A stretch of DNA of 64,000 nucleotides from Escherichia phage vB_EcoM_G2469. The notes under the pieces were generated by a model. That model did no database searches and was not told the origin of the DNA. It was given only the letters and a program-made list of their open reading frames with translations. The position numbers and the translations under genes are program-made. This document shows positions 23,369 to 57,085 of this stretch, one piece after another. Numbering within the stretch: the first letter of the stretch is position 1; every line of letters begins with the position of its first letter. Where the stretch lies: the sequence record MK327934.1; one strand, written 5' to 3'.

Positions 23369-23832
23369 AAAGAGTCTCTTAATAGGTTTAACACATCAAT
23401 AAATTCAGCTTCGGTTAGTATTGTATCATCTTTTGTTAGGTGGCTAGCCATGCTGTGCTTCAAAATTTTTCCTTTAGAGGCTTGTAAGGCATCACGAAAC
23501 CCCTTGTTTTGGATCGCGGCTTCAAAATATGCATTTGTGTATAATTCTTTCCACGCTTCGGAGTATCTTGAAAATGGAACTCCTAGCCAGAAGAGAGTCC
23601 CACGGTCCTGAGCTCTTGCATAAGACCTTCCAGCTTGCTGTGCAGCCAATCCAGACAACCCAAATATACGTCTTTGTTGTTCAATATTTTTCACCTTACA
23701 TCCTTGGAGAAATCCTTCAAGACCTCCGAATTGAATACCATCCATAACAAAAGGCCATTGAGCAAAGTTACTTAATGCACATGACGGCCATTTGAAATTA
23801 CTTCTTATTTCTAATTCAGACATCTTTAACAC
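23365..23832 (-). CDS. NADAR (YbiA/DUF1768)-like domain protein (T4 30.3-like)
   Basis: 155 aa; SNFAQWPF..DG....E.F.Q..K pattern resembling the NADAR signature. Confidence 0.5.
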   Translation of the reverse strand: MLKMSELEIRSNFKWPSCALSNFAQWPFVMDGIQFGGLEGFLQGCKVKNIEQQRRIFGLSGLAAQQAGRSYARAQDRGTLFWLGVPFSRYSEAWKELYTNAYFEAAIQNKGFRDALQASKGKILKHSMASHLTKDDTILTEAEFIDVLNLLRDSL

Positions 23833-24034
23833 TTATAATTTCAACATCAGCCCAATGTCCGTATCCAGGTATACGGTCTTCGATAGATAAATTTCTGTCA
23901 TTTTTAGGCATTTTAATTGACGTAACGTATGGTTCTAAACGGTTTTCCGCGTAATATGGAAAAACGTCGGTTACACGATAAGTAACTTCAATCATTTCCG
24001 TACCAAACAATTTCTGGATTAATTTATTCAACAT
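23816..24034 (-). CDS. hypothetical protein
   Basis: 72-aa ORF. Confidence 0.4.
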   Translation of the reverse strand: MLNKLIQKLFGTEMIEVTYRVTDVFPYYAENRLEPYVTSIKMPKNDRNLSIEDRIPGYGHWADVEIISVKDV

Positions 24035-24221
24035 GTTTCAACCCTTTAATAGGAGATAACTCTTTACCCATACGTATGTCAGAAGTCCCATCAACCCATT
24101 GAACAGCATACGCTTCATTGATAATTCCAGCGGCAGTTTTAAATTCGTTGAGAACTTTAAAAATCATCCCAGGGATTCCAACACCTTTTAATTGGACTGT
24201 TTGTGCTATTAAAAATTTCAT
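24024..24221 (-). CDS. hypothetical protein
   Basis: 65-aa ORF. Confidence 0.4.
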   Translation of the reverse strand: MKFLIAQTVQLKGVGIPGMIFKVLNEFKTAAGIINEAYAVQWVDGTSDIRMGKELSPIKGLKHVE

Positions 24222-24278
24222 ATTTTTCCACTTACTAAAGAAATCATTATACTCTAATCCGTCCTTGGATGTACACTA

Positions 24279-24557
24279 CTTAATGAAATTAATTTCTACC
24301 GGATGAACAACAGGTTGAGCAGTGATATATTGAGTAATTGCTTTCATGACTAGAGCTTCAGAACCAGGATTTTTCTCAACGAATTCACGTGCTAGGTTAT
24401 GAGCTTCGAGTTCACTCAATAAACCGGAACGCTGGCATCCACGGTCTTGAGTACCCTGTTCAGATAAAAGGACTACTACATATTTTTCATCGTCGTAGGG
24501 CTTAGCCAGTTGAGCAAATGTTCCTTTACTTCCAAAAGGAGAGTTATGTCGCCACTT
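24279..24557 (-). other. ATG-less 93-codon open frame, possible frameshifted continuation of upstream gene or non-canonical start
   Basis: stop-free frame from TGA (about 24558) to TAG (24276-24278); only internal ATG gives 23 aa; overlaps 3' end of 24544-24891 in a different frame. Confidence 0.3.
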
Positions 24558-24891
24558 TCACGCCGTGAGGAGTTTCAACCTTCGTATATTCGTGCGGTCC
24601 ATTTTTCTTAGTTTCTTGATGTGGAACTTCATAGACCTTAGGGTTAGGACATTCAATAAAATGCTCATCTAAATCGGTCGAGAATATTAAAGTAAAACAA
24701 TTACTGAATTTACCAACACCGGCCTGATAAATTTTACCTTCAGAAGTTCTAATTTCACAAACCGAGCCGGCATCAGTAACTTCTAAAACTTCAAAAGGCT
24801 CGATAAGGTCATATGAGAACATGTTTTTAAGGCGTGGAGTAATATCCCCATTTTTAAAATTCATTTTATAAAAAGTATTAACTTTAAACAT
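24544..24891 (-). CDS. hypothetical protein (115 aa)
   Basis: ORF from ATG (MFKVNTFYK...) preceded by GAGGAA RBS. Confidence 0.5.
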   Translation of the reverse strand: MFKVNTFYKMNFKNGDITPRLKNMFSYDLIEPFEVLEVTDAGSVCEIRTSEGKIYQAGVGKFSNCFTLIFSTDLDEHFIECPNPKVYEVPHQETKKNGPHEYTKVETPHGVKVAT

Positions 24892-24926
24892 AATTTCCTC
24901 AATGGGAGCCGAAGCTCCCAATTAAT

Positions 24927-25292
24927 TTAGATATCAAATTCGTTAAGAACTACATCAAAGATTGCTTCGAGATGTTCAGGTTTAGCTCGGTTGCTCAGGA
25001 TATGACGAATCCAAGTTTTAACCAGAAGTTTACGATTAACACCATTCCAGCAAGGATGAGTACCTAAATCACGCTGACGGAAATCATCATCTAATGCAAT
25101 TTTAAAATTTGAACCTTCCATCGTGATTGAAACCGTGATACCATTTTCAAATCGCATATAAACGTAATTAGGAGTCATGCACTGTTCGATTTCACAAACT
25201 GTACCGTTTTCGTGTTTCCATAAGCAAATAACTTCAGAAGAACCAGCAATACCATTAGAAACATATTTACGTTCGAAGTTGGTGTAGTTCAT
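24927..25292 (-). CDS. hypothetical protein (121 aa)
   Basis: ORF with upstream early promoter. Confidence 0.5.
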   Translation of the reverse strand: MNYTNFERKYVSNGIAGSSEVICLWKHENGTVCEIEQCMTPNYVYMRFENGITVSITMEGSNFKIALDDDFRQRDLGTHPCWNGVNRKLLVKTWIRHILSNRAKPEHLEAIFDVVLNEFDI

Positions 25293-25331
25293 TTTATTCT
25301 CCAGATGTTTAAGTTGTTTGTTGGTACAGGT

Positions 25332-32894: not shown

Positions 32895-34028
<1,134 letters not shown>

Positions 34029-34075
34029 TCAGTTAGTTTTTTTTAAATTGTACCACAATCCTTGTGGTATGTAAA

Positions 34076-34486
34076 CTACTTTTTCTTATGTTGGATATTC
34101 CAAGGCGGGTTGAACTTTTTGATAAAAAGCGGTTCTTCAAGGTCCATTGTTGCGATGGTCATTGAACCAAGTTCGTTGGTGACTGAAAGGTCAAAACATT
34201 GGCGGGCCCAGAATTCAACCTTTTTGCCTTGCATTAAGGCATCCAAAATCATAAGTGATTTTCTTGAATCTGAAGTCTGGTCTTTTCGATTTATGGCTGT
34301 TCGATAATAGTTAATGCGTTTCTTTAAATTCTTGGTTTTACCAATATACACAAGTTCGTCATCTATAGCAATAGCGTATATGACATTTTTCTTATTAGGG
34401 ACATCGACTGTTTTAATTGTTGCATCTTCTAATAGCTCCAATTCTGTATATTTAATAAAGGAATATTCGGCGGCGATATCTTTCAT
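34076..34486 (-). CDS. denA: endonuclease II
   Basis: 136 aa, GIY-YIG-like YAIAIDDELVYIGKT, T4 synteny. Confidence 0.8.
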   Translation of the reverse strand: MKDIAAEYSFIKYTELELLEDATIKTVDVPNKKNVIYAIAIDDELVYIGKTKNLKKRINYYRTAINRKDQTSDSRKSLMILDALMQGKKVEFWARQCFDLSVTNELGSMTIATMDLEEPLFIKKFNPPWNIQHKKK

Positions 34487-34512
34487 AATAAAGTGGGACC
34501 GAAGTCCCGTCC

Positions 34513-35015
34513 TTAGAAATATTTTTTGTATGAATTGATTACATTTTGGTCTACATCATTATCAATTTGTGCGACAAGATAAGAACTGATTTCAACTTCT
34601 TGTGGGGCTGCTTGAACCAAATCAGAGTTCAAATACTCACGAATCCATGGAATAGGATGACGAGTTGATACGTCTTTAAGAGGACATGGCAGACCACAAC
34701 TACGCATACGAGACACGGTAAGATAATCCACAAATTCACTTAGGATTTTAACATTTAGACCTGGAAGAGCACCATCTTTAAACAAGTGTTCAGCCCATTC
34801 TTTTTCTTGAGCGTTAACTTCCATGAAAATATCAACTGCTTCTTGTTCACACTCTTGAGCAATTTTGACCCATTCATCACCGTCTTCGCCATCTTGTAAA
34901 GCACGAATAATATATTGAGTGCCCTTGAGGTGGAGCTGTTCATCACGAGCAATGAACTTCATAATCTTGGCATTACCTTCCATGATTTCCATATTCTTGT
35001 GGAAGTTAAAGGTAC
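34513..35015 (-). CDS. nrdB: ribonucleotide reductase small subunit NrdB, exon 2
   Basis: encodes ...TFNFHKNMEIMEGNAKIMKFIARDEQLH... to C-terminus; second E..H iron motif. Confidence 0.8.
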
Positions 35016-36106
35016 CGTTATGTTCGATTGAGCTCGCTAATTCTCAACCCGTTCTCTTATGAACTGCTACATATTACTATGCAGACCAGACTATATCACA
35101 ATCCCAGAGGGATTCTCCCCATTTCGAGTCGCTTGACCCTACGTCCGAAGACTAGTCGTTGAACCTTGCTTTGCAATTGTCGCCGTGCCATCGTTTATAT
35201 GTTGATGGTGATAAATCTTTCTTATCACAATATGGACAATTCAATTGAATTCTATTTGGATTTAATTTACATCTGTCATTATGTTTTAGATAAAATCCAG
35301 GACCTTTACCAATGTGACCGCAGAAATCACATGTGATTTCTTTTTGTGCAGGATGGGTCCCGTTCTTAACCATTTCTAATGTTTTTGCTGATGTTCTTTT
35401 CTTATGGTCTTCTGACAAGAAATGATGTGAACCGTCATTTACCCGTTTTGATTGAGTTTCTGACTGCATTTTACCACCGCAAAATACATGAGTACCTTCT
35501 TTTATAGCTGCAATATTGCGTTCTTTAACTTTTGCAATATGCTCAGCTTGTTGAAAATTATGTATACCTAATGCAACTCTATTTAAATTAGATTTACGCT
35601 GTATTTCACCGTCTAAAAGATGAAATGTACCATTTTCTATCTTAGATTTAATAGAGGCAATATTTTTAGCTCGTACTTCAGGGATATTAAAAATCTGGAT
35701 TTCTCTAGATTTTGCGGCTTTAGAAGCTAATTCAGAAATTTCTTCAGGAGAATATTTCATTCTAAGCTTTATAGCATGACAAGCCTGGTAATCTTTTTGA
35801 GCTAAATGTATATCATAATGTTCCTGTATAGAAAGGCACATCAAATTATCTAAATCATTATTTTCACGGTTACCGTCTTTATGATGGATTTCGTATGTTC
35901 TTCCATCAGAATCTTTAGGTATAGGTCCGTTAGCATCTATCCAAATTTTTCTATAGTTCAATTGTGCATCCTCTTAAAAGTATAATCATATTTATATTAT
36001 ACTAATTAAAGGTGCAAGCAAAACCTTGGCTGCTAGTTTTCCTATAAAGGACTTTCCAGCAATTAAAGGAGTTTTCGATAAACGTTACCGTTTAAAGGCG
36101 CATTTT
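35016..36106 (-). mobile_element. group I intron in nrdB (about 1091 nt) carrying I-TevIII
   Basis: exon 1 frame stops immediately after ...RFYVSFA; 3' region shares core (TCGAGTCACTTGACCCTAC...GAACATAA(C/T)G) with the td intron; proposed junctions follow 5'-exon U and terminal G rules. Confidence 0.75.
35152..35961 (-). CDS. I-TevIII: I-TevIII HNH homing endonuclease, full length (269 aa)
   Basis: HNH motif EIHHKDGNRENNDLDNL, C-terminal Cys-rich zinc finger; apparent TTG start after AAGAGGA RBS. Confidence 0.85.
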   Translation of the reverse strand: MNYRKIWIDANGPIPKDSDGRTYEIHHKDGNRENNDLDNLMCLSIQEHYDIHLAQKDYQACHAIKLRMKYSPEEISELASKAAKSREIQIFNIPEVRAKNIASIKSKIENGTFHLLDGEIQRKSNLNRVALGIHNFQQAEHIAKVKERNIAAIKEGTHVFCGGKMQSETQSKRVNDGSHHFLSEDHKKRTSAKTLEMVKNGTHPAQKEITCDFCGHIGKGPGFYLKHNDRCKLNPNRIQLNCPYCDKKDLSPSTYKRWHGDNCKARFND

Positions 36107-36782
36107 ACGCAAAAGATACATAAAAACGAATAGCTTCTAAGGCATTAATAACGTGCAAACAGAGGTAAAGAGATTTCATTAGCTCACGCTTCCAATATGT
36201 CTCATGCTCAATAGCATCTTCAATAACGTCTTCGTCTGCATTAATTTCTTTTTGGTATTCGATATCAGCTTTAGCGTTTTCCCAATAACGAGCTTTAACC
36301 AGAACATCATCATAATATCGTCCGATAGATTCGGCACGCTTCATAATAGCTTCATCTAATACAATCTCATCAAACACCTTCGATGGATCTGTATAAAGAT
36401 TTCGCATAATATGAGTATATGAACGAGAGTGAATAGTTTCACTGAAAGTCCATGTAGCAACCCATGTATCTAATGAAGGGTCTGAAAGCAATGACATAAG
36501 TACCGCAGATGGTGCTCTACCTTGGATAGAATCTAATAATGATTGATACTTAAGGTTGTTGGTAAAGATGTCCTGTTGGAACTGTGGAAGCTTATTAAAC
36601 TGGGCCGAATCCAACATCAAGTTTACTTCCTCGGGACGCCAAAAGAACGAGAGCTGCTTTTCGATAAGCTCTTCAAAAACTTTATGACGCTGAATATCAT
36701 ACCGTGCGAGGCCAAGACCAGAACCAAAGAACATCGGTTCATTCAAAACATCGACTTGTTGTGTGTTAAAAACTGTACTCAT
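36107..36782 (-). CDS. nrdB: ribonucleotide reductase small subunit NrdB, exon 1
   Basis: MSTVFNTQQVDVLNEPMFFG...EAIRFYVSFA; class Ia R2 motifs. Confidence 0.85.
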
Positions 36783-36836
36783 TATATTTCTCACTTAGTT
36801 ATTAACTCATCCATGAGTAAATTATAATAAAAAGTC

Positions 36837-39092
36837 TTAAAGCTTACAAGCAGAACAATCTTCTGCTTTAGGTGTTTCTAATTCATAGTCGTCTGTACCA
36901 GACCCATCACGAGTGTTATGATAGTAGAGGTTTTTTCCGCCAAAGTACCAGAAGTAAAGCAGATCGTCAAGCATTACTGACATTGGCACTTTACCTTTCT
37001 CAAATACTGCAGGGTCATAGTAAGTATTAGCAGAAGCAGATTGGCACACCCATTTCAACATGATAGCAACTTGGGTCAAATAAGGTTTATTACCTTTCTT
37101 AGCAAGTTTCCACGCGTAGTCGTAAAGACTCATGTTATGTTCGATATTAGGAACAACCTGTCGGAAGTTGCCTTCTTTAGATTCTTTAATACTTACTGGA
37201 CCACGTGGGGGCTCAATCCCGTTTGTAGAGTTCGATACTTGACTGCTTGACTCACAAGGCATGAGTGCAGACAACGTTGAGTTACGAATTCCATGTTCTT
37301 TGAGTTCAGCTCGAAGTTCTTCCCAGTCACAGACGTAGTTCGGGGCTGCGATTTGGTCAATCTTTTTATTGTACCAGTCGATAGGTAATTCGCCTCTAGA
37401 CCATTTAGTGTCTGAATAATACTCACAACATCCTTTTTCTTTGGCGAGTTTGATTGATGCTTTGATAAGGCCATATTGCAATCTCTCAAACAATTCATGA
37501 GTCAAATCGTTAGCATCTTCATATGACGCAAAGTTAGAAGCTAACCATGCAGCATAGTTCGTAACACCAACACCAAGATTACGACGCTTTTTAGCTTTTA
37601 AAGCTTCTGGAACCGGATAATCTTGATAGTCTAACAAGTTATCAAGTGCACGTACTTGTACTTCAGCAAGTTCATTAATTTTATCTTGGTCTTGCCAATC
37701 AAATTTATCTAATACAAAAGCAGATAATGTGCATAAACCAATTTCAGCATCAGGCCCATTCACATCATTAGTTGGAATAGCGATTTCACAACATAAGTTA
37801 CTCTGACGAATTGGAGCTTTTTCACGAATAAACGGAGTGTAGTTATTCGTGTTATCAACAAACTGTGGATAAATTCGAGCAGTACCAGAGCGTTCAGTCA
37901 TGAACAATTCAAAGAGTTCTAGTGCTTTGATTCTTTTCTTTCTGATTGTTGGGTCTTTTTCAGCTTTCTCATAAAGCTCACGGAATTTATCTTGATCTTC
38001 AAAGAACGAGTAGTATAGTTCGCCTGACATTTCGTGAGGGCTAAATAAAGTAATATAATCATTTTTACCAAGGCGTTCCATCATAAGGTCATTAATCTGA
38101 ATTCCGTAGTCCATATGTCGAATACGGTTTTCATCCACGCCTTTGTTATTTTTCAGAACTAATAGGTTCTCTACTTCTAAGTGCCACATCGGATAATACG
38201 CTGTAGCAGCACCACCACGAATACCACCTTGAGAACAAGATTTTACTGCAGTTTGGAAATGTTTCCAGAATGGAATAACACCCGTATGTCGAACTTCACC
38301 CATACCGATCTTAGAACCTTCTGCACGAAGCATACCAACGTTGATACCGATACCAGCTCGTTTAGAAATATATTCAATAATTGATGCTGAAGTTTTGTTA
38401 ATAGATTTTAACGAATCACCGGCTTCAATAACTACACAACTAGAGAACTGGCGAGTCGGAGTACGAGCACCTGCCATAATTGGGGTTGGCAATGAAACTT
38501 GATGAGTAGAAACGGCATCATAAAAACGAATAATATGTTTCAAACGGTCATGAGTTTCGTCTTGATGTAAGGCCATACCAATAGCCATGATAGCAAACTG
38601 TGGAGTTTCATAAATCTTCCCAGTTGTTTTATCTTTAACTAGATATTTTTCTTTAAGCTGCATAGCACCAGCATAAGTCAGGTCAAAGTCTCGTTCATGT
38701 TTAATCTGTGAATCGAGATAAATGATTTCTTCTGCTGAATATTGAGACAACAGCTCAGGGTCATATTTGCCTTCATTAACACAATAAGAAATATGGTCGA
38801 TAAAAGCAGGCGGTTCAAACTGCCCATATACATCTTTACGAAGTGCAAACATTAGCCCTTTGGCGGCGACATACTGATAATCAGGTTCTTCGACAGAAAT
38901 CGAGTTAGCTGCAACTTTAATACAAATCTTCTGGATATCTTTGGTGCTCATCCCGTCGACAAGATGGGTCTTAATTTCTTCGTACAATTCATATGGATCA
39001 ATTTGTGTTCCTTCACATTGCCAAGTTAAGACTTGAATAATTTTCTGTGCATCAAAATTTTGGGATACACCACTGCTCTTAGTTACTTGCAT
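36837..39092 (-). CDS. nrdA: ribonucleotide reductase large subunit NrdA
   Basis: 751 aa, C-terminal CxxC...KL tail, T4 synteny. Confidence 0.95.
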   Translation of the reverse strand: MQVTKSSGVSQNFDAQKIIQVLTWQCEGTQIDPYELYEEIKTHLVDGMSTKDIQKICIKVAANSISVEEPDYQYVAAKGLMFALRKDVYGQFEPPAFIDHISYCVNEGKYDPELLSQYSAEEIIYLDSQIKHERDFDLTYAGAMQLKEKYLVKDKTTGKIYETPQFAIMAIGMALHQDETHDRLKHIIRFYDAVSTHQVSLPTPIMAGARTPTRQFSSCVVIEAGDSLKSINKTSASIIEYISKRAGIGINVGMLRAEGSKIGMGEVRHTGVIPFWKHFQTAVKSCSQGGIRGGAATAYYPMWHLEVENLLVLKNNKGVDENRIRHMDYGIQINDLMMERLGKNDYITLFSPHEMSGELYYSFFEDQDKFRELYEKAEKDPTIRKKRIKALELFELFMTERSGTARIYPQFVDNTNNYTPFIREKAPIRQSNLCCEIAIPTNDVNGPDAEIGLCTLSAFVLDKFDWQDQDKINELAEVQVRALDNLLDYQDYPVPEALKAKKRRNLGVGVTNYAAWLASNFASYEDANDLTHELFERLQYGLIKASIKLAKEKGCCEYYSDTKWSRGELPIDWYNKKIDQIAAPNYVCDWEELRAELKEHGIRNSTLSALMPCESSSQVSNSTNGIEPPRGPVSIKESKEGNFRQVVPNIEHNMSLYDYAWKLAKKGNKPYLTQVAIMLKWVCQSASANTYYDPAVFEKGKVPMSVMLDDLLYFWYFGGKNLYYHNTRDGSGTDDYELETPKAEDCSACKL

Positions 39093-39179
39093 ATATTCCT
39101 CAGTATAGGTTGATAGACATTACTCCAAACGGGATAGTATTTATCCCGTTAATTTATTATACACTTTTAAACTGAAGCG

Positions 39180-39434
39180 TTAATTATCCTCAGCAATAAT
39201 TTCTTCGTATTCTTTAGGTGTCAAGACCGTGATATCGAAATAAACCAATGGTTCTTTTTCCATACCGTAACCACCACAAAATTCACGATATTCATAAATT
39301 CGTTCATGTGAATAACAAATGAATCGTTCACCTTTAACTGTGATTTCACTATTCGGTGAAGGGATATCCAGTTCGGTAGGATTTTTCATTTCAAAAATTG
39401 TGGTGCCATATGAATTAATAAAACGTAAAATCAT
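39180..39434 (-). CDS. hypothetical protein (84 aa)
   Basis: ORF between td and nrdA. Confidence 0.45.
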   Translation of the reverse strand: MILRFINSYGTTIFEMKNPTELDIPSPNSEITVKGERFICYSHERIYEYREFCGGYGMEKEPLVYFDITVLTPKEYEEIIAEDN

Positions 39435-39435
39435 T

Positions 39436-39747
39436 TTATACCGCCATTTTAGCTTTGATAGCTGGATGTGATTCGTAATTTTTAAGAACGAAATCAGAAT
39501 GTGTCATTGTTCCAGTAACCCAGTCCATTTGGATTTTTGTAGGCCAATTCTCAAAATTACTAGGCCAATTAATTTCAAGAGAACATAACTCTTTAGGTTC
39601 ACGACGAAGAACTTCTTTGCATTGTTCTACATGATTGCGGTAGATATGCGTGTTGCCGCCTGAGAACACTAAATCACCTGGGATAAGGTTACACATCTTC
39701 GCTACAATATGCGTCAAGGCAGCGTAAGAGGCAATGTTGAACGGTAG
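39436..39747 (-). CDS. td: thymidylate synthase, exon 2
   Basis: begins CTACCGTTCAAC (LPFNIASY...) immediately after intron terminal ...CATAATG. Confidence 0.9.
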   Translation of the reverse strand, partial: LPFNIASYAALTHIVAKMCNLIPGDLVFSGGNTHIYRNHVEQCKEVLRREPKELCSLEINWPSNFENWPTKIQMDWVTGTMTHSDFVLKNYESHPAIKAKMAV

Positions 39748-40763
39748 CATTATGTTCAGATAAGGTCGTTAATCTTATCCCGGAATTATATCCAGCTGCA
39801 TGTCACCATGCAGAGCAGACTATATCTCCAACTTGTTAAAGCAAGTTGTCTATCGTTTCGAGTCACTTGACCCTACTCCCTAAAGGGATAGTCGTTAGGC
39901 ATTTATGTAGAACCAATTCCACTTATCAGATTTTACACGGTAAGTAACTAATCCTGATGAAATTTCAAAATGTCTAGCCGCATCGGCTGCACATTCAAAA
40001 ATAATCCCATCGCATGAAATCTTTTTGATGTTAGCTGGCTTTTTGCCTTTCATCTTTTCAGATAGTTTAGTTTTAGTTTTTTCTGAATGTTTGTGATTAA
40101 AGAACGGGTTATTTTCACCTGAACGTTTTCGGCACTTTCCACAAGTATCGGCCGAAGATGGTATGCGAACACCGCATTTACAAAACTTGTGGTTTTCTGG
40201 ATTCCATCGGCCATTTTTACTTCCGTGTTTACCATAAAGAGCTTTCCGACCATCAGGACCAAGCTTAAGCATCTTAACTTTAACAGTTTCAGCTCGTTTC
40301 TTAGCAATTTCTTCTTTTAATGGATGATTTGAAAGCACATCGCCAAAAGACGCATCAGCAATATTATATCCATTAATTTTAGAATTTAGCTCTTTAATCC
40401 AAAAATTTTCTCGTTCAATAATCAAATCTTTCTCATACGGAATTTCTTCCAGTACAGAGCATTCAAAAACATTACCATGTTTATTAAAAGACCTTTGAAA
40501 TTTTATAGAAGAGTGAACACCGTTTTCAAGGTCTTTAAAATGTCTCTTCCATCTTTTCTCAAAATCTTTAGCACTTCCAACATACACTTTACCGTTTAAA
40601 GTGTTTTTAATCTGATAAATTCCGCTTTTCATAAACACCTCTTTTTATATAGAAGTATTTATTAAAGGGTAGTCCTACAATTTAGCACGGGATTGTCTAC
40701 TAGAGAGGTCCCCCGTTTAGATAGATTACAAGTATAAGTCACCTTATACCTAGGCCTAAATTA
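39748..40763 (-). mobile_element. group I intron in td (1016 nt) carrying I-TevI
   Basis: 5' end TAATTTAGGCCTAGGTATAAGGTGACTTATACTTGTAATCTATCTAAACGGGG and 3' end ...CTGAACATAATG match the T4 td intron; same length as T4. Confidence 0.9.
39895..40632 (-). CDS. I-TevI: I-TevI GIY-YIG homing endonuclease
   Basis: 245 aa MKSGIYQIKNTLNGKVYVGSAKDFEKRWKRHF..., near-identical to T4 I-TevI. Confidence 0.92.
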   Translation of the reverse strand: MKSGIYQIKNTLNGKVYVGSAKDFEKRWKRHFKDLENGVHSSIKFQRSFNKHGNVFECSVLEEIPYEKDLIIERENFWIKELNSKINGYNIADASFGDVLSNHPLKEEIAKKRAETVKVKMLKLGPDGRKALYGKHGSKNGRWNPENHKFCKCGVRIPSSADTCGKCRKRSGENNPFFNHKHSEKTKTKLSEKMKGKKPANIKKISCDGIIFECAADAARHFEISSGLVTYRVKSDKWNWFYINA

Positions 40764-41312
40764 ACCTAAGAAAACATCTACACTGCGTTGATACCATTGT
40801 AAATCAAGATGTCCATTACGCACATTAAATTGATAGAACATATGACAAGGAGGAAGAGCCATTTGGTCAATTTCGGCTGGGTTCCATGCAGAAACTATTT
40901 GACGACGATCATTAGGAAGAGCTTTAATGCGGTCGATAGTTTTGACCAATTGGTCTACACCACCAAAATCACGCCATTGCTTACCATAAATAGGACCAAG
41001 TTCGCCGCTATGATATCCAAGGTCTTTTGCCTGATTTTCATAGTTGTCGTCCCAAATAGTTTTACCTTGAATAAGACTACCATGAGTACGAATACGCAAA
41101 TCATTAACATTGGTAGAACCAGACATGAACCACAGTAACTCGGCAATACAAGCTTTCCATGCTAATTTCTTAGTTGTTACTGCAGGAAATCCTTTAGTAA
41201 GGTCCCAACGTAATTTAGTTCCGAACAGGGCAATAGTGCCGGTACCTGTACGGTCGTCTGTTTCGTAGCCATTTTCTAAGATATCTTTAATCAGGTATTG
41301 GTATTGTTTCAT
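40764..41312 (-). CDS. td: thymidylate synthase, exon 1
   Basis: MKQYQYLIKDILENG...QRSVDVFLG followed directly by intron. Confidence 0.92.
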
Positions 41313-41896
41313 TTATATACGCTCTCAGTAATTTCGGTGAGTTCATCGATTCTGTAGTAATGAGATTCTACCATAGAACGTTGAAGCATAATATCTTGGA
41401 CGAAATCTTTATCAAGTTGAACATCGGAATTAACACGACATTTCTTAATGATTTTAGTCATCACGATTTCATCGGCATAAGGCAGTGCTTGTTTAAGTAG
41501 AGCAGGACCGCCGATAACAGATACATTAACATGTTCAGTAGAAAGTTTAAACGGTACATCAGTTGCAGGGCTAAACAGGTTAATTTCATCACCTGTTACC
41601 AAGGTAATAAATTCTGCTTGGGTGATATAGAACCGTGCAAGTTCATCAGTTTTAGTCCTAGGCAGTTTTCTGGCCATATCAGTGACAACCACATGAGTAC
41701 GATCTGGGAGTAGACGAGGTAATGATTCAAAAGTCTTAGCACCCATAACCATTACAGTGTTTTTAGTGCGAGCAACAAAGTTACTCATATCTTGTTTGAT
41801 ATGCTTCCATGGAAGTCCATCACCTAATCCAAAAGCATATTCCAGTTTATCATCAACCGTTTTAGATGGTGCGCATGCGAATACTAATTTAAGCAT
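41309..41896 (-). CDS. frd: dihydrofolate reductase
   Basis: 195 aa from ATG (MLKLVFACAPSK...), ATGA overlap with td start. Confidence 0.9.
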   Translation of the reverse strand: MLKLVFACAPSKTVDDKLEYAFGLGDGLPWKHIKQDMSNFVARTKNTVMVMGAKTFESLPRLLPDRTHVVVTDMARKLPRTKTDELARFYITQAEFITLVTGDEINLFSPATDVPFKLSTEHVNVSVIGGPALLKQALPYADEIVMTKIIKKCRVNSDVQLDKDFVQDIMLQRSMVESHYYRIDELTEITESVYK

Positions 41897-56851: not shown

Positions 56852-57085
56852 CTAGGACATTAAGAGCGCCTGTTCTTCGGTGTAGTCAGAACCAAATACA
56901 ATAGTGATTTCACCGGGTTTAGAATGACTGAAATCAACACTAAACTCAATTCGAGAACAGACTTCATCTTCCATATCTACGATAACACTACGACACACTT
57001 CTCGGTTAACCTGATAAAGCTCTGCAAGTTCTTCACATCGAATAACAAGTTCAGTGGCAGGATTTTCTTTGATTTTAGTAAGCAT
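56852..57085 (-). CDS. hypothetical protein (77 aa)
   Basis: ORF. Confidence 0.4.
   Translation of the reverse strand: MLTKIKENPATELVIRCEELAELYQVNREVCRSVIVDMEDEVCSRIEFSVDFSHSKPGEITIVFGSDYTEEQALLMS

Follow-up and report, generated by a model that had tools for sequence, protein, structure and literature searches.

The two minus-strand reading frames at positions 24544–24891 and 24279–24557 of the window (the whole stretch of 64,000 nucleotides that was analyzed) are, in our assessment with high confidence, two parts of one gene cut by a one-base lesion, and represent neither a programmed frameshift nor a separate gene. The second frame belongs to a disrupted allele of a known accessory gene, 30.6A, whose product is already annotated in the source record as a hypothetical protein of 115 aa. 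The same sequence, without any difference, is that of QBO62905.1 (G2469_00213), encoded by Escherichia phage vB_EcoM_G2469, a Mosigvirus of 170,452 bp from pig manure (MK327934; Korf et al. 2019, PMC6563267). QBO62905.1 is the only database protein with this truncation.

Organization of the split locus

On the minus strand, positions 24279–24557 comprise 93 stop-free codons, flanked by a TGA at 24560–24558 and a TAG at 24278–24276. The first-pass annotation had singled out this stretch, hereafter the orphan frame, as an open frame without an initial ATG, and retranslation gives the identical 93 residues. The sole in-frame ATG is codon 71, 23 codons before the end; the TTG at codon 47, the sole ATG, GTG or TTG ahead of codon 71, opens an ORF of 47 aa (24276..24419, minus strand). 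The upstream ORF runs from the ATG at 24891 to the TAA at 24546–24544 and shares 14 nt with the orphan frame, which is +1 relative to it. The earlier account of the ATG, the TTG, the +1 frame and the overlap is thus borne out in every detail. The features of the locus, with the source of each assignment where it derives from a scan, an alignment or an annotation, are as follows:

24927..25292, minus strand: 30.7, the upstream neighbour, 121 aa (ORF list; synteny with TuIa 30.7 and moha_243)
24903..24920, no strand assigned: stem-loop TGGGAGCCGAAGCTCCCA in the 30.7/30.6A interval (terminator-like scan; a stem_loop is annotated likewise in TuIa, AJ621579)
24544..24891, minus strand: 5' part of 30.6A, residues 1–111, then KVAT out of frame and a premature TAA; 115 aa
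24555..24558, minus strand: lesion, AAAG versus ATG (Met112) in relatives, T replaced by AA (alignments with APCEc01, TuIa, moha, pEB20 and SQ17)
24544..24546, minus strand: premature TAA resulting from the frameshift; the same bases read ..CAT AAC.. in relatives
24279..24557, minus strand: stranded 3' part of 30.6A, a leading AAG and codons 113–204; natural stop TAG at 24276–24278
24246..24275, minus strand: promoter-like TGTACA-18 nt-TATAAT just past the 30.6A stop (scan, 10/12 matches)
24024..24221, minus strand: 30.5, the downstream neighbour, 65 aa (ORF list; annotation of TuIa and mar009P5)

In TuIa, -35 and -10 signals are annotated in the 30.6A/30.5 interval, and the promoter-like site at 24246–24275 accounts for part of the gap ahead of 30.5. 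The neighbourhood is a T4-type early block (rIII, 30.9, 30.8, 30.7, the split gene, 30.5–30.2 and DNA ligase), in which the order 30.8, 30.7, 30.6A, 30.5, 30.4, 30.3, 30.2 is the same as in TuIa, APCEc01, pEB20 and moha. In Mosigvirus, 30.6A is located in the variable early-gene block that extends from gene 31/rIII to DNA ligase (gene 30).

The intact gene in related phages

Megablast with the region 23800–25300 matched 713 phage records, the best of them from Mosigvirus (T4-like) coliphages (moha with 99.8% identity; pEB20, WFL6982, APCEc01 and others with at least 99%). All top matches align the 1501-nt query to 1500 nt, which reveals one extra base in the window. In the relatives 30.6A comprises 615 nt, encodes 204 aa and is flanked by 30.7 and 30.5; it is annotated in TuIa (AJ621579) as CDS "30.6A" at 550–1164 (CAF21717.1), and orthologues of 615 nt are APCEc01_090, UYE94955.1 of pEB20 and moha_244. 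A tblastn search with the 204-aa protein recovered 113 records at a coverage of at least 80%, and residues 1–204 lie in a single piece in 56 of the 56 full-length rows displayed, which are an even sample down the ranking of these records. The same search with the orphan frame aligned 92 residues, all identical to the C-terminal 92 residues of the intact 204-aa gene in APCEc01 and many Mosigvirus.

The family assignment leads to the same picture. The upstream ORF matches positions 1–111 of phrog_17531 (204 positions) with E = 9.6e-78 and the orphan frame positions 113–204 with E = 1.2e-60, a whole-profile match that is collinear across both window ORFs. Within the gene 31-to-gene 30 early block, the split gene also occupies the slot of the family, flanked by 30.7 and 30.5. 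In place of the single ORF of about 204 codons, the window has an ORF of 115 aa and the orphan frame; given the one-base gain at codon 112, it carries a disrupted phrog_17531 allele and not an intact member.

The slot, the flanking stem-loop and the promoter ahead of 30.5 are common to the window, TuIa and the Mosigvirus orthologues. Full-length gp30.6A relatives are 94–100% identical to the APCEc01 orthologue; the window protein with its lesion reverted equals the moha protein, and its C-terminal 92 residues are 91–100% identical to those of the full-length relatives. Whereas the intact orthologues have 204 aa, the annotated window product has 115 aa, its frame being broken at codon 112. Among more distant relatives dN/dS is 0.10–0.36 for the N part and 0.12–0.21 for the C part, values that indicate purifying selection on both halves of the gene.

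The first-pass annotation had called the composition of the orphan frame protein-like; the profile match, the low dN/dS of the C part and its conservation in relatives mark the frame as more than a chance one. Alignment of both peptides to homologues, which it had proposed as a check, returns a single protein in TuIa, APCEc01, pEB20, moha and the remaining full-length relatives displayed. Among its explanations, a frameshift mutation or a sequencing error splitting one longer gene is the one that agrees with the data, the relatives having a single 204-aa protein and the window an extra base at the junction. It had also named two results that would speak against this explanation, an independent, properly initiated gene and a frame that is not conserved; at the 30.6A locus of the relatives we found neither.

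As a side observation, several gp30.5 proteins of 65 aa, products of the unrelated downstream gene, share a 90%-identity cluster with the 204-aa gp30.6A; their presence there is probably a clustering artefact, arising for example via a fused gene call.

Modules of gp30.6A

Searches for the function of gp30.6A gave little. There is no Pfam match, a profile search of PDB sequences returned nothing below E of about 0.5, and HMMER against 1.84 billion representative proteins found only 7 relatives. AlphaFold2 models reached a mean pLDDT of 34.9 from the single sequence and of 48.4 from a 6-row alignment and are too poor to use.

Comparison with other T4-like phages delimits a C module at residues ~86–195, with the core KNGxHxYT..WxHNSPxG..DEKYVxV..GTQDRGCQRSGL..NPGxEA. 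SP18 gp30.6A, CkP1_0226 of Citrobacter phage CkP1, and the proteins P0004 and P0005 have this core (..KNGxHxYT..WxHNSPxG..DEKYVxVxLxExGTQDRGCQRSGL..EAxxxAxEFxxxNPGxEA..) in common with residues ~86–195 of gp30.6A. These stand-alone C-module proteins are properly initiated, are 116–152 aa in length and are devoid of the N module; the window fragment, unlike them, opens partway into this module and lacks a start. The frameshift falls within the conserved C module and not at a domain boundary. The N module is also found in P0009 (146 aa), whose gene fills the same slot, immediately behind gp30.7, on a T4-like contig from a metagenome. A relationship between the N module and SP18 gp30.6 was considered and rejected (BLASTP E = 2.2, different PHROG family).

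The occupant of the slot after 30.7 varies among T4-like phages, being an unrelated gp30.6 in SP18, the two-module 30.6A in the window and P0009 in the metagenomic contig. In SP18 and CkP1 the C module stands alone, in the interval from rIII/30.9 to 30.8. The loci of this slot and C-module polymorphism are:

L035, 3764–4204
L003, 1066–1416
L004, 1015–1473

The lesion and its predicted product

In nucleotide alignments the junction reads GTGAAAGTGG in the window and GTGATGTGG in the relatives. In codons, the relatives have ...CAC GGC GTG ATG TGG CGA CAT AAC... and the window has ...CAC GGC GTG AAA GTG GCG ACA TAA: the T of the ATG (Met112) is replaced by AA, with a net gain of one base, a TAA stop follows five codons on, and codons 113–204 come to lie in the +1 frame. 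The extra base would shift the ribosome into the frame that ends at this TAA, and the phage would make a 115-aa N-terminal fragment consisting of residues 1–111 and KVAT. The C-terminal 92 codons, whose nearby ATG is lost to the lesion, would be left essentially untranslated, and we infer that the C-terminal part is silent. Low-level expression of this part is possible, either through tRNA-Lys slipping by +1 from AAA onto AAG at GUG-AAA-G or through a start at the CTG of codon 17 (24509–24507), the first near-cognate codon of the frame.

When AAAG is reverted to ATG, the gene displays zero synonymous and zero non-synonymous differences from moha in both halves. Taken together with the purifying selection in relatives, this shows the orphan frame to be real coding sequence, whose separation from the 5' part would be very recent.

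Among the sequences searched, the variant itself turned up nowhere else. The 111 nt around the site matched 108 phage records, in a collection outside which MK327934 itself lies, with no case of 100% identity (best, 98.2%), and each listed row aligned 111 nt to 110 nt, that is, with a substitution and a gap. IMG/VR, the JGI metagenome contigs and the GTDB genome contigs contain no copy of the exact 27-nt variant. A gapped pattern allowing for any length variant had no match in IMG/VR; it had 14 metagenome and 7 genome matches, those in genomes lying on contigs whose titles name unrelated bacteria, and all 21 are presumed to be chance matches. In a large assembly index no genes for the 115-aa and 125-aa products are on record. 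Since the variant is unshared and the reverted gene agrees with moha in all its codons, the lesion is of very recent origin, unless it is an error in the consensus.

A second frameshift allele in phage SQ17

The truncated protein shares its 90%-identity cluster with a single further protein, QVW29355.1 (158 aa), which is encoded by phage vB_EcoM_SQ17. The SQ17 genome (MW882907.1) reads CAC GGC GTG TGC GGC GTC versus CAC GGC GTG ATG TGG CGT C in TuIa; the A of ATG112 is deleted and T is changed to C in the next codon (ATG TGG to TG CGG, -1 nt). Its position is the following:

L037 (MW882907.1), ~830–845: SQ17 lesion, matching window 24552–24561

The 30.6A of SQ17 is thus, like that of the window, frameshifted at the same spot by a complex lesion (an indel with an adjacent substitution) in a natural Mosigvirus isolate. 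The two alleles differ in that SQ17 has lost a base and encodes a product of 158 aa with a 47-residue out-of-frame tail, whereas the window has gained a base. Downstream of the lesion SQ17 has the haplotype of the TuIa type, which makes the two events independent.

The site has further particularities. In a comparison of 15 distinct full-length proteins, codon 111 alone has four states (V/D/G/E), and the 15 nt around the site tie as the most variable in the gene, a rank that holds only if both frameshift alleles are counted. In relatives the site is bracketed by an 8-nt inverted repeat, CCACATCA..TGATGTGG, with a 56-nt spacer (window 24617–24624 and 24553–24560, minus strand), and its 3' arm is disrupted in both frameshift alleles. 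The RNA fold predicted for this region is no better than that of shuffled sequences. Within 500 nt the mutant sequence has no second copy, direct or inverted, that could serve as template, and no repeat templating either the window lesion or that of SQ17 was found.

Genuine mutation or consensus error

We favour a true and very recent mutation, one that would have inactivated a dispensable gene. That the window instead contains a consensus error, the phage truly having the relatives' junction and an intact 204-aa 30.6A, is the less probable reading, though one that retains appreciable weight. It agrees with the lack of a matching variant in the phage, IMG/VR, metagenome and genome collections, and the zero secondary decay relative to moha is equally compatible with an artefact and with a recent mutation. 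According to the source paper, sequencing was performed by PacBio RSII or MiSeq, and for some of its genomes PacBio RSII reads were the only basis of the assembly (PMC6563267). The window moreover contains a second unshared non-triplet indel, at 56868–56871.

On the other hand, the change combines a substitution with an insertion and lies outside any homopolymer (AT to AAA), unlike the usual homopolymer-length error, the G2469 assembly has a reported coverage of 429x, and a frame break was observed in none of the large genes of the 64-kb window. SQ17, an independent genome, has a different lesion at the same place, and the surrounding 15 nt are naturally variable; both observations make a real mutation at the codon 112 site plausible.

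The survey of frame integrity compared the ORFs of two relatives with the window and comprised 266 queries with matches. Two endonuclease-bearing insertions aside, the frame breaks beyond 30.6A are located at 56868–56871, in an annotated gene, and at ~34040, in a short unannotated ORF. The first affects the minus-strand ORF 56852–57085, which has two extra bases, at 56868 and 56871 (AAGAGCGCCTGTT versus AAGAGC-CC-GTT); this +2-nt change shortens the moha_201 orthologue, which drops from 99 to 77 aa, and 321 nt are aligned to 319 nt in 15 of the 15 listed rows of 162 matching phage records.

The two insertions lie in td and nrdB and are both absent from moha and pEB20. The td gene (thymidylate synthase) is interrupted at ~39748–40664 (minus strand) by ~0.9 kb containing an ORF for a 247-aa GIY-YIG-type protein (39895–40638, minus strand; GIYQIKN..YVGSA), and nrdB at ~35014–36107 (minus strand) by ~1.1 kb containing an ORF for a 269-aa H-N-H-type protein (35152–35961, minus strand; ..HHKDGNRENNDLDNL..). 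We take the former to resemble the T4 td/I-TevI intron and the latter the RB3 nrdB/I-TevIII intron. Rfam group I intron models, applied at the gathering threshold over 34000–41500, gave no match in either insertion.

Recoding and internal initiation

The first-pass annotation had also allowed for a programmed frameshift. Recoding could restore a full-length gp30.6A in two ways, by a +1 slip at GUG-AAA-G or by a hop from ACA-UAA (24549–24544) to the ACA at 24521–24519, and we consider it very improbable that either takes place as a programmed event. As regards the slip, the sequence permits it, an AAA followed by G allowing +1 re-pairing, and the product (..HGVKWRHN..) would be close to the normal one (..HGVMWRHN..), with ..TPHGVKWRHNSPF.. 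as the junction-spanning peptide expected. However, all relatives examined but SQ17 are single-frame, a conserved shift site is absent, and the lesion of SQ17 is its own. The relatives need no shift, so that there is nothing to be conserved, and no other searched sequence has the shift site and two-frame layout of the window. Moreover, the allele equals that of moha apart from the lesion, and a stimulatory element for the shift therefore cannot have evolved.

The A-site codon after AAA is GUG, not a stop, and GUG is not known to be a rare codon; a Shine-Dalgarno-like stimulator is not seen just upstream. The RNA of 146 nt at the site has a minimum free energy of -24.7 kcal/mol as compared with a mean of -27.8 for shuffled sequences (z = +0.87), and is thus no better folded than these. 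Three consecutive A's are too few to cause transcriptional slippage. Judged from the sequence only, +1 slippage at AAA-G is expected at background level. The resemblance to the +1 frameshifting of E. coli prfB is superficial, residing in the +1 downstream frame and the P-site AAA able to re-pair with AAG.

As regards the hop, the take-off codon at the stop has a matching ACA in the downstream frame, 25 nt past the stop, an arrangement whose chance occurrence is estimated at about 1 in 5. The relatives translate the intervening bases and no significant structure was detected, so that the conserved gap, take-off stem-loop and nascent-peptide signal of a bypassing site are all missing. The likeness to T4 gene 60, in which an ACA/ACA pair flanking the stop recalls the bypass, is again superficial, and the ACA-TAA...ACA arrangement is a coincidence in a very recent allele without gene-60 features. 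Unlike prfB and gene 60, the window has no conserved shift, no evidently slow A-site codon and no stimulatory structure, and its relatives have no coding gap.

The remaining explanation of the first-pass annotation, a non-canonical start, amounts to an independent small gene in which the CTG of codon 17, the TTG of codon 47 or the ATG of codon 71 leads to expression of the C module. The existence of this module as a stand-alone protein in other T4-like phages, namely SP18 gp30.6A (116 aa), CkP1_0226 (152 aa), P0004 and P0005, lends it some appeal, as does an AAGGA motif 12 nt upstream of the CTG. Yet the stand-alone genes have their own ATG and an N-terminal extension, and those of SP18 and CkP1 are located between rIII and 30.8-type genes and not in the slot after 30.7. 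At the 30.6A locus of the relatives the frame is read through from the upstream ORF, of which it is merely the continuation, and no conserved start with a ribosome-binding site of its own was found, the frame having no ATG, GTG or TTG ahead of codon 47. Bacterial initiation at a CTG that has a 12-nt spacer is very inefficient, and the products of TTG47 and ATG71 would be devoid of most of the conserved core (KPYDDEKYVVV..GTQDRGCQRSGL). An independent gene is therefore hardly to be expected here, and we retain the reading of one gene interrupted at codon 112.

Implications

For the annotation of the genome, the apparently empty stretch of ~280 nt is the 3' remnant of a disrupted 30.6A, and neither a new gene nor a site of recoding. 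The only element of the locus that could lead further is the coincidence of two independent lesions in a single codon. Two random frameshifts would share a codon in about 1 case in 200, a figure calculated post hoc and from two events. Sequence-directed mutational hot spots have classically been mapped in T4 rII. It is conceivable, but in our judgement unlikely, that codons 111–113 (CAC GGC GTG ATG TGG CG) are a hot spot for the repeated alteration or switch-off of 30.6A; possible causes would be sequence-directed mutation, recurrent selection for changing or losing this part of the protein, for example through escape from a host defence that senses it, or a nuclease cutting site.

As concerns the protein, two natural isolates propagate with a truncated gp30.6A, and from these two alleles, that of the window and that of SQ17, it appears that full-length gp30.6A, and notably its conserved C module, is probably dispensable on laboratory hosts, as is expected for genes of the variable early region of T4-like phages.
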